In this document: piece after piece, positions 1,521 to 57,617 of the stretch
Layout: each line of letters starts with the position of its first letter
Position numbering within the stretch: the stretch's first letter is position 1
Assembly (NCBI GenBank): GCA_951406725.2
Contig: OX597821.1
Location: forward strand, 82,398,001 to 82,462,000
Source of the DNA: Octopus vulgaris
Lineage: Eukaryota
Direction of reading: 5' to 3'
Length of the DNA stretch: 64,000 bases
Made by a program: the position numbers and the translations under genes
Notes under the pieces: generated by a model
Seen by the model: only the letters and a program-made list of their open reading frames with translations
The model's database searches: none
What the model was told of the DNA's origin: nothing

Positions 1521-1594
1521 TACCTCTGATGAATGCAAGGTTACATAATCATATTGTTACCTAACACATCTCCTAGTGTGAAATCGATTGGCAA
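1521..1594 (+). ncRNA. Partly degenerate type I hammerhead ribozyme motif
   Basis: CTGATGA (1526-1532), helix II ATGCAAGG/CCTAGTGT, GAAA (1580-1583), palindromic helix III ATCGAT; helix I weak; lies just after a (TA)n tract. Confidence 0.45.
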
Positions 1595-2406
1595 TTTCGG
1601 CCATGATGGATATATAAATATTGTACACTTTGATTAATATGTGTATATATGTATGTATGCATATGTATGTATGTATGTGTGTGTGTATATATATATATAT
1701 ATATATATATATATATATGTATATATATATATATATGTGTGTATATATATATATTATATAAATATATATATAGAAATGCACACACACAGATCTATGTGTG
1801 TGTGTGGTGCGTGTGGTGTACATGTGTACATCTTTTGTCAGTCAATACAAAAGAAAGATATAAACATCAACAATAAAAAAAATCCCCCAAAAAACAAAAA
1901 CCAATGTTTCTAAATAAAAATACCCTGTGTAGTATTTGTTTCACAAGAATTACACAAACAATGGCAATGCAGTGAACCACTGATCAACTCAATGTAAAAC
2001 CTGTAACCACTGATGTTATTGTTGATGAAATGAGATATAAAATAAGATAAAAACAACAAACAAATAATCAATAGATTGTTTGTTACTAAACAGCAGGCTG
2101 TCCATAATGAAGCAGTTTTATTATCTAAGTTGTTCCAACCATGGCCATCCAATTTTTCCCTCCTGTTTACTCCTTTCTGTCATCGAACTATGGCCAGGCT
2201 GGAGCACCACATTGAAGGGTTTAGTTAAACAAATCAAACCCAGTACTTCTGGTACTTATTTTATCGGTTGATGTTTTTTACTGAAACACTAAGTTATGAG
2301 AACATACGTGAGCCAACACCGGTTGCCAAACTGAAGGAAGGTGCTAACACAAACACAAAGACACACACATATACAAATATGTGCATAAGTAGAGTCAAGT
2401 AGTTTG

Positions 2407-2875
2407 CTTAAGGGTATAATCTATTGATCACCGGAGCTTCTATAAGGGAAACCTCTATGCAATCACTGCAACTACTATAAATCGTAGCAAAATCCATCCT
2501 CTGTAAATCACACCCCTTACTGTCTTAAGAAGTGGAAGGACACATTACACACACACACATACACACTCACACAAGATGGGCTTTCCTCACAGTTTCTGTG
2601 TACCAAATCCACACACAAGACATTGGATAAGCACAGGGCTATAGTTGTAGATACCTTGCCCAAGGTACTGCACAATGAGATTGAACCCAAAACCATATGG
2701 TTTCAAAGTGAGTCTCTTAACTACACAGCCATGCCCTGTACACTTTTCTTTTAAGACGTATATCTAATGTGTCCTTACATTTTCTAAGACGGTGATTTGC
2801 TGCTTCTTGTAGCAATGACTGTACAGAAGTTTCCCTTCTTGAAGTTCCAGTGATCAATAGATTATGCCCTTAAGC
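2407..2875. mobile_element. Inverted-repeat (MITE-like) element with a SINE head inserted between its arms
   Basis: gcttaagggtataatctattgatcac...aaggacacatta (2407-2548) is the diverged reverse complement of taatgtgtcctt...gtgatcaatagattatgcccttaagc (2765-2875); SINE head at about 2575-2716 (-). Confidence 0.7.
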
Positions 2876-3558
2876 CTAACATTTAATTCTACTTTCCACT
2901 ATGTGCTTCACAGACAAAACAGGCTCTACACTATATTTGAATGGTTAGTTGTAGGAAGCAAGTTTCCCAGTGTTAAAATGTTCCAAACTATATTACCCTT
3001 TCTAAAAGAGTAATGAAAAAAAAATGGTATGGTCTTAAATGATTGAAAACAATGTTATAATTCAATTGTAAATAAATTTCCAATTGAATGTAACTATTTT
3101 GGGGAAATTTTCTTATTACGTTATCTTTTTAATGGGTCATATACATTGTCATGCAGAATAATGATTTTTCTTTATAGGATTAAGACTACCATGGGGGTTA
3201 AGATTATGGAAACCAAATAAGCAATAGCAAATGAAAATGTTTAGGAGCCAGTGGTCTGTAACATTGAAAACCAGGATACCAAAATCATTGTTGTTTTTTT
3301 TGTTTGGTTTCATTTTTTTTATAGATCTAAATAATGCATTTCTATGCATTCATGATATTCTGGATCCATATATCTCTTTTATAGATCCATCTTTTATATC
3401 ACTTATATGAAGAAGAATCTGAGTTAGGCTGTGGATGTGTAAGGAAAGGGGCTGAAAGGTGGGTGCTTTATGAGAAAGTGCAGGTTAAGCCTGTAGTTAT
3501 ATTTGTTTGCTTTTTTTCTTTAATTTTTTTCTCTTCTTTCTTTCCATGGATTTTTCAG

Positions 3559-3586
3559 GAAGAAAGCTCTTGAACTTTACATGTTG
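3559..3586 (+). CDS. Candidate 28-nt coding micro-exon (KKALELYML)
   Basis: Long polypyrimidine tract ending ttttcag, open frame, donor TTG|GTAATG; protein not recognised. Confidence 0.3.
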
Positions 3587-54209: not shown

Positions 54210-54810
54210 TGCCAACCACTCTGTGAGTGTAGTGGGTGCTTTTTATGTGCCACCGACACAGGTGCCAGACGAGGCTGGCGAACGGCCACACTCGGAGGGT
54301 GCTTTTTACGTGCCACCGGCACGGAGGCCAGGCAAGGCTGGCAACGGCCACGATCGAATGGTGTTTGTTACGTGCCACCAGCATTGAGGCCAGTCGATGC
54401 GGTGCTGGCTACGGCCATGTTCGGATGGTTCTCTTATGTGTCACCAGCACTGGTACCACAAACTACAAATTCCATTGATGTTGATCGATTTCGATTTCAA
54501 TTTGATTTTTTGATTCTTTGATTTTCACTTGCCTCAACAGGTCTTCACAAGTAGAGTTATGTGTCCCAAGAAGGAAGGTATGCACAAGTGGACTGACTAC
54601 GTCCCAGGTAGGGGCCACGGGTTATGGCCTCACTTGTCCTGCCGGGTCTTCTCACGCACGGCATACTTCCAAAGGTCTCGGTCTCTGGTCATTTCCTCGG
54701 TGAGACCTAAAGAGCGAAGGTCATGCTTCACCACCTCGTCCCAGGTTTTCCTGGGTCTACCTCTTCCACAGGTTCCCTCAACCACTAGGGTGTGGCACTT
54801 TTTCACACAA
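54210..54810 (-). mobile_element. RTE LINE 3' end (ORF C-terminus + UTR)
   Basis: Reverse complement of the 5231-5700 family (GRGRPRKTWDEVVKHDLR). Confidence 0.9.
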
Positions 54811-56258
54811 CTTATATATATATATATATAAATGTGTGTGTGTGGTGGAGTATATCTTTGTATCTATGTTTGTCCTCCACCACCACTTGGCAGCCATTGC
54901 TGGTGTATATACATTCCCATAACTTAGCAGTCTGGCAAAAGAGACCAAGTTTTAAAATAAAGCACTAAATCAATTCATTCAACTAAAATTTTTCAAGGTT
55001 GGGACCCAGCATGGCTCCAGTCTAATTTCATTGGCTGGAATGTTGTATCTGTTCATAATAATTCAGTTCGGACTGCTCTATGTAATCACTCAGCCACCTA
55101 CGAATTGCAACCAAATTGATCCACTCACGTCATAGAGAAGGACATGCAGAATAATTTAGTTCTAGACTCCATGAACATAGGAAACAAATATAGAATGGAC
55201 ACTAGTGGAAAGCTTTTCATCAAAGGTCTGCTTAATTAGAGCTATCCTGGGGTTAAACAGCGATAACAATCTGTGTTAGGTGTACCATCCTATAGAGACC
55301 TACCCACCCCCAATTAGTCCTACCATTTCAATTAGGCCCACCACTCTAATTAGACCTATATTCTAATTAGACACTCTACCCAAATTAGAACTACCGTCAT
55401 TAACCTTTTCTTGACATTAATTCTAATAATAATTTAGTCACTGAATGTTAAAATTGATTTTCCAAATAGTCAAGAATTTAGAGATATATAGTGAAATAAT
55501 TCTAAGATATATATATCTATATGTATGTACATATATACATATGTTGGGTTATCGGAAAAATTTTTTACTACTTGGCTCTCATTTATATGTCTGGAAAGTG
55601 GTAAAATTTATTCAAATTTCAAAAACAAACAAAAGTTGCAGCGGAAGAATATAGCTACAAGAAGAACCATAAAATGCTACAATAAAAATGTTTTGTGCAT
55701 TAATTCAAATAACATTAGAAAGGATTAAAATAAATGGAAAGAAAAATCGAATTTGTTTGACAACCTTGTATATATATCATCATTATCATCATCATCATCA
55801 TTTTTTAACATCTGTTTTCCATGCTGGCATGGGTTGGACGATTTGACCAGAGCTGACAAACCAGAGAGCTGCACCTGGTTCCAGTTTGATATAGTTAGAT
55901 TTCTACTGCTGGATACTCCCCCCCCCCAACACCAACCAGTTCACAGTGTGTGCTGGATATTGTTAAGGTGGCACTGACACCAACACTTTCACATGACACC
56001 GGAATGAGTGGTTTTTACATGGCACCAGTACAGGACTTTGCAGGCCAATCCTCTTCACTAGCAGATGTGACCTTAACACTTCTGCTGTGAAGGAAGGATC
56101 TTCTTAAGTACAGCAAGGCGCCAGGTATCTTGGTCCTTTGTCATCTCATTTGAAAGGTTCAGCACTTTGAGGTTGTCCTTCAATACTTTTCCCCATGTCT
56201 TCTTGGATTACTCTGTTCCAAGTCCTTATATGTATATATATATATATATATATACACA

Positions 56259-57061
56259 CTACATATGTAGGAAATTCTGTCTGTGGGTGTGTTTGTTGAG
56301 TTGTTAGCTAACTCCTCCTACATCGTTTTATTGATTTTGATGAAACTTAACACGTGAGTAGAACTCATGTGAGGAAACCTCATGGCATACTCAGATTGTT
56401 GAAAAAAAAAATCGATAATAGGGCCCCTGGAAGGGATCCTTATATATAGCCAAGGGAAATATCCCATTCATTTTCCTAAATTATTTGGTAACAATGAAAT
56501 TAAGTATGCTTATTTCTTAGTATTTGAACAGTTAGAGTTATTTTTTTTGCAATTTATCCTGTACAACCCTTAAATAAGTAAATAGTATTTTCCTAAACTA
56601 TATATGCACTTATTTCAGTTAGTGACTAATTCATGAATATACCAACACTAGTGCCCCTGAGGGTAATTTTCTCTGGGAATGCACAAAAGCCCTTTTCAGA
56701 GTTATTTACATTGAACTGTTATTTCATATCTGATTAGCCTGTTATTACGTAACATGCTTCATGATTTTATTATACATACCTTATTAGTATTTCCTCCTAT
56801 GTTCTATATACTCTGGGAACACATTAAAGCCCTTTTGGGGGCTACTTTATCTGAATTCTTACTATTGGGTAACTAATTTCATGTTATTGTATAATTAACC
56901 TCACAATTTGGGTATTCATAACTTATTGGGAAATCCTGAAAACAAGATCCTGTGTAAGACAGTTCGGTATTCTCTGTATTATTGGATTAGTGGAATAATT
57001 ATGAGAATAGAGCCAAGAGATAAGCCCCACTTTCCCAGGAATTACCGGGTACGTCAGCTAG
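56259..57061 (+). mobile_element. Non-autonomous Helitron
   Basis: 5' ...AAATTCTGTCTGT, GATTTTGATGAAACTT motif, 3' hairpin CCCAGG..CCGGG followed by CTAG|T. Confidence 0.7.
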
Positions 57062-57536
57062 TATATATTATATACGTATATATACATACATAACATATAC
57101 ATATATAAATATGTGTGTGTATGTATGTATGTATGTATTCAAGTAGTATATTCCTGATTATGGCATATAACAGATCAGAGTTATGGTACAACAAATGTGT
57201 TTTTCTTGGACTTTCTTTTCCTTCTTTCTGGACTTTTCCTCTTTCCCCCTTCTGACGAAGATTTATGCTCTAAATGTCACACCTCACTGATTTTACCATC
57301 TTAAACTTTCTCTGAGCACCAACCTGATACATTCACTGTGTAAGTCCTTTTGACTTACGTTGTTTTTCCTGTTTTTGTTTTTATTTTTGGTTTGCTCATA
57401 TATATTTTAATAATTTGTTTAGGCATAGTGAGACTAATAACCTGGTGTAGAACTCAATTATATATGAGTATAGAGTGGTAACAGAAAACAAAGATATGAA
57501 ACTGGAAAAACCAAATGTTATGTAATGAACTTCATT

Positions 57537-57617
57537 AGCTTACAGTTGTTTCTGCTATAGGATGTGGTTGACTCTTAGTTGAATACCAGGACAACATTCT
57601 ATAGTTTCATCAGAGTC
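57537..57617 (-). ncRNA. Type I hammerhead ribozyme (long helix II)
   Basis: CUGAUGA-AA-CUAUAGAAUGU...ACAUCCUAUAG-CA-GAAA-CAACUG-UA^AG. Confidence 0.7.

Follow-up and report, generated by a model that had tools for sequence, protein, structure and literature searches.

Introduction

Hammerhead ribozymes have been described in Penelope-like elements (PLEs) of several animals, and here we analysed ten such motifs in a 64,000-nucleotide stretch of the Octopus vulgaris genome (assembly GCA_951406725.2, contig OX597821.1, positions 82,398,001 to 82,462,000 of the forward strand; hereafter the window). They resemble the motifs surveyed by Cervera and de la Pena in 2014 (PMC4209133) in being mostly single and dispersed, with many heterogeneous families per genome, in forming opposite-strand pairs 100-700 bp apart, and in having an extra base between positions 9 and 10.1, palindromic positions 15.2-16.2 and loop 3 and a U3-A8 variant, with few copies in full PLEs. 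They differ in number, with thousands there (3,300-9,000) versus about 10^5 here under a looser descriptor, and in helix II, which is often 40-70 nt in our set; no cephalopod appears in the portion of that survey available to us.

Hydra-clade PLEs (Craig et al. 2021, PMC8557442) encode a reverse transcriptase (RT) with a C-terminal GIY-YIG nuclease, have a DKT motif and CxxC/CxH near the nuclease end, target (TA)n and bear a 3' hammerhead, and octopus elements described below share these traits. According to the supplement of that paper, Hydra magnipapillata members have the helix III sequences ACTTTAAGT and ACTATTAGT, identical to those of window families G and B, and Hydra-1_Obim from Octopus bimaculoides combines a hammerhead with a (TA)n preference. 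A system of this kind, including one octopus family and identical helix III palindromes, has thus already been described, while the accessible portion of the paper gives no genome-wide ribozyme count. Retrozymes without long terminal repeats (non-LTR retrozymes; PMC7229834; Li, Clavereau and Pollet 2026, 10.64898/2026.07.22.740005) are, in the parts of these sources at hand, non-coding units of 150-450 bp that contain a type I hammerhead; PLEs are proposed both as their origin and as the source of their mobility, and solo monomers occur. One tandem locus outside the window (L037) fits this description fully and window family A fits it partly, whereas the window copies are all solo or inverted and none is tandem.

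Weighing the evidence set out below, we put at about 0.8 the probability that the window motifs are hammerheads from the pseudo-long terminal repeats (pLTRs) of PLEs, together with short non-coding passengers on the same machinery, most copies being dead 3' remnants.

Hammerhead motifs in the window

The ten motifs, identified by their C3 positions, belong to the following units.

25909..26122, plus strand: family A unit of about 215 nt, no open reading frame (ORF), TA on both sides; C3 25990; helix III ACGU; predicted cut after 26016
26165..26400, minus strand: family B unit, 5' limit unmapped; C3 26310; helix III ACUAUUAGU; predicted cut after 26265
35551..36212, both strands: family C head-to-head inverted insertion; minus arm with C3 35707 and short 3' end, plus arm with C3 35945 and long 3' end
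38968..39172, minus strand: family A copy; C3 39099; predicted cut after 39073
39677..39972, minus strand: family D, 3' end of a Hydra-clade PLE; C3 39802; helix III ACAUAUGU; predicted cut after 39730
41845..42110, minus strand: family E unit, 5' limit unmapped; C3 41960; helix III ACAGCUGU
43335..43478, plus strand: family F hammerhead and 3' end; C3 43352; helix III ACAGCUGU; helix II very AU-rich
53244..53419, minus strand: family G; C3 53382; helix III ACUUUAAGU; 53393-53419 an inverted piece
57460..57625, minus strand: family H hammerhead and 3' end; C3 57613; helix III ACAACUGU with one mismatch

The original prediction had claimed ten complete cores, and CUGANGA...GAAA-palindrome-UH was indeed found at 10/10 sites; its position numbers are left edges, and the C3 positions of the same motifs differ accordingly. 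Block-wise dinucleotide shuffles of the window (200 or 100 replicates), which is microsatellite-rich with 36.6% GC, served as controls. The core with a palindromic helix III alone occurs at 17 sites compared to a mean of 2.94 (maximum 8) in 200 shuffles. A strict test, combining this with at least 3 bp in each of helices I and II, gave 6 matches versus 0.06, and a second descriptor that tolerates one mismatch gave 10 versus 0.28 (100 shuffles), so the proposed comparison with shuffled sequence favours the motifs. Core variants besides CUGANGA were not above shuffles in the window, and a descriptor lacking the extra base after A9 found only three window sites.

Not all ten are intact. The strict test is passed by five (25990, 35707, 35945, 39099 and 43352), while the other five are each flawed in a single helix. 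In 39802 and 41960 helix I has a broken pair close to its base, the base of helix II is poor in 53382, and an A-A mismatch lies inside helix III of 57613. The sixth strict match is 37591 on the minus strand, outside the ten. Helix III, said to be always self-complementary, is fully so in 9/10 motifs when G-U pairs (as at 15.2/16.2 of 35945) and a central odd base are allowed, the exception being 57613. Judged by these defects, several window copies are probably already inactive. A strong apparent helix I fold at 53382 was rejected, as it arises from the inverted piece and not from the ribozyme.

The covariation check likewise supported the motifs. It used 48 families, one representative each, picked without reference to helices I and II and with a few of them likely false, from about 1.05 Mb of DNA of which much was chosen around these repeats. 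Positions 1-4 of helix I are paired in 39, 39, 34 and 34 of the 48 families, compared to about 20 with swapped partners (20.6 at positions 1 and 2; maximum 33 in 2000 swaps), and the pairs comprise all standard types. All four helix II positions are paired in 15/48 families versus 3.5 expected. Within the D group (7 sequences) pairing reaches 95% with three double changes, these sequences being related to each other, so that the shuffle control there is not a probability. An Rfam scan of the window returned no hammerhead family among the matches listed (150 of 370), all of which were microsatellite-driven miRNA matches. Taken together, the motifs are identified as minimal type I PLE hammerheads with palindromic helix III, whose cleavage is predicted from sequence.

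PLE families linked to hammerheads

Family D is young: among 3089 first-look candidates, the 30 best copies share 90-98% identity with that of the window. Their 5' ends spread from about -75 to beyond -1500, while the 3' ends fall at about +126 or +277. An ORF is reached in 4/30 of these copies and ends about 560-610 nt upstream of the motif, as it does at loci L187 and L188. Relatives elsewhere have intact ORFs of 833-899 aa, and at L167, L186 and L187 a single ORF contains RT followed by C-terminal GIY-YIG motifs. L186 (G000:C1:119515300-119524500) is an intact array in which 3624-bp units that are 99.96% identical follow one another head-to-tail; they contain an 899-aa ORF, and the ribozyme lies between the ORFs. 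The protein has a long low-complexity linker, DKT and LYRDD motifs, a GIY-YIG-like pair, and CxxC and CxH flanking the E and N of the nuclease. By eye it follows the published Hydra-clade alignment (PMC8557442, as far as available). Its Atlas neighbours carry HTH_animal/RVT_1, and a 136-aa RT query gave 9582 first-look candidates genome-wide. Family D also shows insertion into (TA)n, a hammerhead in the pLTR, copies in tandem or inverted arrangement, and a tail at one end.

By its motifs and alignment, family D is placed as the 3' end of a Hydra-clade PLE. Compared to the described Hydra clade, the D group has a long Asn/Ser-rich linker without CxCX5C, RWL for RWK and 3.6-kb units in intact tandem arrays, and we take it to be a divergent, Hydra-like lineage because of the RWL, the missing CxCX5C and the unit size; Hydra-1_Obim is 2.5 kb long with another ribozyme and no pLTR seen. 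The term non-autonomous, which the original prediction had applied to the whole set, does not hold, because the 39802 copy is the end of a coding PLE whose relatives have intact ORFs. Similarly, the proposed non-coding units of 200-300 bp are discrete only in family A, whereas the 5' ends of families C and D are ragged and their copies have inverted partners, as in truncated PLE insertions.

A second PLE family encodes a 781-aa protein in which Pfam GIY-YIG scores above and RVT_1 just below the cut-off, and which we take to be Neptune-type from its linker motif. It has a U3-A8 hammerhead, missed by CUGANGA counts, in both pLTRs, and it ends on (TA)n. Loci L023-L028 hold many open 781-aa frames, 95-99% identical, with long pLTRs, and its GIY-YIG gave 6136 first-look candidates genome-wide. 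The Hydra-like and Neptune-type proteins align weakly over RT (22%, E 0.002). Window positions 43922-44015 were considered as a Neptune 3' end and ruled out, being the inverted tip of another short family.

Insertion anatomy and proposed mechanism

The predicted TA-targeting PLE-type system was recovered at the 3' side, where copies end on (TA)n, while 5' ends mostly do not. A TA tract on both sides of each unit had been claimed; a run of at least three TA lies 77-209 nt downstream of all ten motifs, but a clear 5' tract adjoins only two family A copies, family D by way of an inverted piece, and, at 315 nt, 43352. TA within 250 nt on the 3' side was found for 12/16 motifs compared to 571/3448 random positions. 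Family B is tail-to-tail with the neighbouring family A unit (25909..26122), with one TA tract between them. Positions 39881-39972 are an inverted piece of the longer 3' end of the family D element, so that this insertion is bounded on both sides by 3' ends of the element lying on (TA)n.

An inverted arm lies upstream in 17/30 family D loci, and in 17/17 of these one arm ends at about +130 and the other at about +279. Five of the 17 share the layout of the query itself, which the search favours; the remaining loci still give 12/12, one of them resting on an 18-nt match. In family C, ten inverted cases represent eight independent insertions; seven of them have one arm ending at +160-179 and the other further out (+192 to +300), while in the eighth an arm is truncated. 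Both the family D copy and the family C pair of the window fit this short-arm/long-arm pattern. In D, C and the Neptune-type family, the ends fall on short TA-like words in the template. About 50 nt separate the +279 site from the start codon of the next unit downstream, which indicates that the template reads through the pLTR. That the arms of all inverted D insertions end at different fixed sites suggests twin priming on one RNA, and two-site twin priming would explain TA on both sides of some units that have no fixed 5' end.

The arm pattern agrees with the 'tail at one end' that Craig et al. described (2021, PMC8557442). Similarly, two internal RNA sites at which reverse transcription starts, defining the tail, and the cutting and extension of both strands of an AT-rich target have been shown for the Poseidon element PAc of the green anole (Frangieh et al. 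2024, PMC11167929). Judged against the available part of that study, the octopus elements differ in their tail, about 140-150 nt versus 30-40 nt, and in ending at short TA-like template words, whereas PAc priming is reported to be non-homologous.

In the mechanism that we propose, the GIY-YIG nuclease would nick (TA)n. The transcript serving as template would extend across the pLTR into the following tandem unit, and the nicked strand would prime reverse transcription within it, at either of two fixed TA-like positions located about 130 and 280 nt beyond the ribozyme. Synthesis would usually stop early, so that the ribozyme-bearing 3' end is copied most often. If both target strands prime, one per site, the outcome would be a head-to-head insert flanked by TA on either side. 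The palindromic helix III may allow two ribozymes within one tandem source transcript to form an active dimer by pairing, while solo copies, having no partner, would decay. Family A could be a non-coding passenger of about 215 nt, one unit being copied per event from tandem or circular RNA.

Abundance across the genome

The assembly comprises 2.8 Gb in 227 contigs. A random sample of forty 10-kb stretches (400 kb) at round coordinates of the 30 largest contigs gave 31 motifs versus 2.45 in shuffles, seven of them in one tandem array, from which 200,000 motifs (bootstrap 102,000-326,000) are extrapolated, or 158,000 (88,000-242,000) with the array counted once. Whole-genome patterns that impose no pairing constraint gave 99,936 matches versus 17,601 in the control for a helix II of 9-39 nt and 74,375 versus 13,449 for 40-70 nt, summing to 174,311 versus 31,050. 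The matches register each core a single time on one strand and every end on the other, which gives an excess of distinct cores of about 2 x (44,013 + 34,464) - 2 x (8,183 + 6,247) = 128,000, and perhaps 120,000 after overlap and false matches derived from a short interspersed nuclear element (SINE) are allowed for. This SINE starts with GGCAGAAACGTT and supplied 2 of the 100 matches listed in each of the two pattern searches. Of 17 short-pattern starts in the sample, 14 pass the structure scan (7 of these in the array). The genome thus holds about 1.2-1.6 x 10^5 cores, roughly one per 20 kb or 40-55 per Mb. The U3-A8 core is modestly enriched in the sample (AC..GT class 4 versus 0.7).

The original prediction made the reach of its one motif per 6 kb conditional on the window being representative, which it is not: the window is 2-3.5 times richer than average, with 8 short-helix-II matches versus 2.3 from the genome mean and none in the 20-kb flanks. 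The accompanying expectation of an exceptionally large repertoire with many families was borne out by about 10^5 cores genome-wide and by the 48 families in the fetched DNA. Among window families, B gave 1702 first-look candidates, its best 39 other copies being 84-90% identical over nearly the whole query, and E gave 2871, its best 39 other copies being 87-92% identical, while G is old (74-86% between copies). A further family, with helix II starting AGGCTGG and helix III ACGT/ACGTGT, is absent from the window and makes up about a quarter of the matches listed for the first 3 Mb of G000:C1 under the 9-39 nt pattern.

Published animal counts correspond to roughly 4-15 per Mb when set against genome sizes. 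They include about 120,000 in the 28-Gb axolotl genome (about 4 per Mb), more than 6,000 in Acropora and about 5,000 in Mytilus (PMC7229834), and minimal motifs numbering 9,000 in Xenopus tropicalis, 4,000 in coelacanth and about 3,300 in Schistosoma mansoni, which has 'thousands' of canonical hammerheads in addition (PMC4209133). The density here exceeds the animal counts in the portions of literature at hand, and because descriptors differ, 'densest known' is plausible rather than shown. Our literature search for octopus or cephalopod hammerheads, which did not extend to subscription papers, Repbase/Dfam or preprint supplements, found only Craig et al. 2021 relevant; given this scope, an earlier count may exist.

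Weighing the readings

Several observations weigh against assigning the window motifs to PLEs and their passengers. The proposed link of the families to PLEs encoding RT and GIY-YIG was established directly for family D only; family C has one suggestive locus among 30 (L081, with a decayed Hydra-like nuclease about 420 nt upstream that is not common to the other long family C copies), and in family G 0/30 loci are continuous with a PLE ORF. The window has no PLE coding sequence, and the 1.5 kb upstream of the hammerheads in the random sample contained no detectable ORF of Neptune or Hydra type. Even at E 5 the Hydra-like ORFs match no Pfam family of relevance, a PDB search did not recognise them, and their RWL, their linker and a unit above 3 kb depart from the clade. 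Minimum-energy cofolding produced the helix III duplex for only 1/4 motifs tried, and the better conservation of the core in families C, D and G, described below, is also what some selection on the copies would give.

As an account of the whole set, a non-LTR retrozyme system is unlikely, although it holds in part. Its strongest case is L037 (2097-4770; G000:C1, about 20.002-20.005 Mb), a young seven-copy tandem of 359-bp period with identical hammerheads, two copies on the minus and five on the plus strand arranged head-to-head as an inverted arm, with TA at both ends. One L037 monomer folds at -117.3 kcal/mol compared to -94.5 +/- 5.0 in shuffles (z about -4.6), and by these features the locus is identified as a true tandem retrozyme and the best candidate for a circular RNA. 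Family A, with three copies in the window and 3519 exact cores genome-wide versus 0 in the control, points the same way in part: among 22 unselected copies, 12 begin at the same base, 9 of these directly after a TA-type tract, and 13 of the 14 copies whose 3' end is complete continue into TA. Eleven exact head-to-tail junctions (0 in the control), including a trimer of 219-bp period, were found, which is few against the number of exact cores. No coding parent of family A was found, and the 22 copies share no common upstream sequence; its monomer, however, folds no better than shuffles (-24.8 versus -24.0 +/- 3.1, one monomer). Assembled contigs from four sets, whose runs are not recorded as RNA, cover family A and contain no back-joint, such contigs being unable to show ends or strand. 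Family D as a coding PLE end, the ragged 5' ends of C and D and the solo or inverted window copies all argue against retrozymes as the general explanation. The set instead combines PLE ends that are 5'-truncated or inverted, the non-coding family of about 215 nt (25990, 39099) and tandem retrozymes outside the window.

Whether the copies act in the host bears on two further readings. Differences from the consensus in the core and in the rest amount to 8/299 versus 602/7616 in family C, 2/270 versus 100/5167 in D and 17/258 versus 451/3271 in G, so that the core is two to three times better conserved in these families, and slightly so in A (4.0% versus 5.4% mismatch, CpG changing fastest). Loss of the motif is frequent among copies, scans being passed by 14/30 of C, 24/30 of D and 1/30 of G. 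Both observations are most simply read as selection on source elements with decay of the copies. A solo copy has no dimer partner for helix III, and inverted partners lie on opposite strands. The statement that such motifs cleave efficiently as dimers goes beyond the parts of the literature available to us, in which minimal PLE hammerheads have low activity (PMC4209133), that of the anole element is protein-dependent (PMC11167929), and 1/9 Xenopus dimers was active (10.64898/2026.07.22.740005).

We consider improbable a far-reaching version in which the octopus has the densest animal hammerhead repertoire (more than 10^5 cores in dozens to hundreds of families), long pre-mRNAs contain several compatible ribozymes, solo copies belonging to different families join by helix III pairing and cleave transcripts of the host, and family A stems from one PLE-driven, TA-primed round on a circular RNA of about 215 nt. 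Still less credible is that the host keeps the dispersed ribozymes to cut intronic or intergenic transcripts through palindrome pairing in the same RNA or in trans. The very high density, the recurrence of compatible palindromes across families (ACAGCUGU in 6/48), the location of 7/10 motifs on one strand and the conserved cores of C, D and G would suit it, but the decay of C, G and half of the ten motifs, the family A mismatch pattern and anole PLE RNA-seq without ends at the cut site (PMC11167929) speak against it. Chance matching in AT-rich, microsatellite-rich DNA explains some loose-pattern hits from the SINE, and for the set it is refuted by the excesses over controls in window, sample and genome and by covariation across families and within the D group; the single weak motifs 1526, 37591 and 46906 may be chance.

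Significance and other features of the window

Because the architecture is already known, the value of the set of PLE ends and passengers lies in its scale and tractability. About 10^5 natural variants in one genome form a library for high-throughput cleavage assays of the role of PLE ribozymes, and the Hydra-like and Neptune-like PLEs, which are young and intact and include tandem arrays, are substrates for the unsolved mechanism of PLE integration. Two-site twin priming makes a direct genomic prediction, namely the strict short-arm/long-arm asymmetry. As the main text of a recent octopus repeat annotation contains neither 'hammerhead' nor 'ribozyme' (PMC13282606), some short repeats filed as SINE or unknown in genomes of this kind may be PLE ends.

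About ten decayed motifs had also been noted in the window; we count about eight that are decayed or doubtful, as follows.

1521..1600, plus strand: doubtful or decayed motif between TA tracts; C3 1526; helix III AUCGAU
14900..15140, both strands: decayed head-to-head family G pair; C3 14995 (plus), partner 14982 (minus)
37541..37591, minus strand: candidate hammerhead with imperfect helix III, beyond the earlier ten; passes the strict test and the second descriptor
38156..38362, minus strand: decayed family A copy; core mutated at 38278-38284
about 41386, minus strand: decayed or doubtful motif
43709..43811, both strands: short inverted duplication round a hammerhead-like core; C3 43756 (plus)
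57219..57277, plus strand: decayed family-A-like 5' half; C3 57252

No homologue of the 37591 candidate was found within the 400-kb sample. The inverted insertions at 35551-36212 and 43709-43811 would form long RNA hairpins if transcribed, and genome-wide such PLE inserts could, speculatively, supply sizeable double-stranded RNA. Copies of the tRNA-like SINE lie at 11363-11445, 12380-12468 and 58566-58653; the head of this abundant repeat contains GGCAGAAACGTT, which accounts for false hammerhead 3' halves in pattern searches. Pieces without a Pfam match at 15497-15805 and 44143-44580 are presumably Tc1-like, and others near 7207-7874, likewise without a match, presumably resemble a long interspersed nuclear element (LINE). 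Positions 17105-17470 on the minus strand hold a Mariner transposase fragment (Pfam Transposase_1, E 5e-22).

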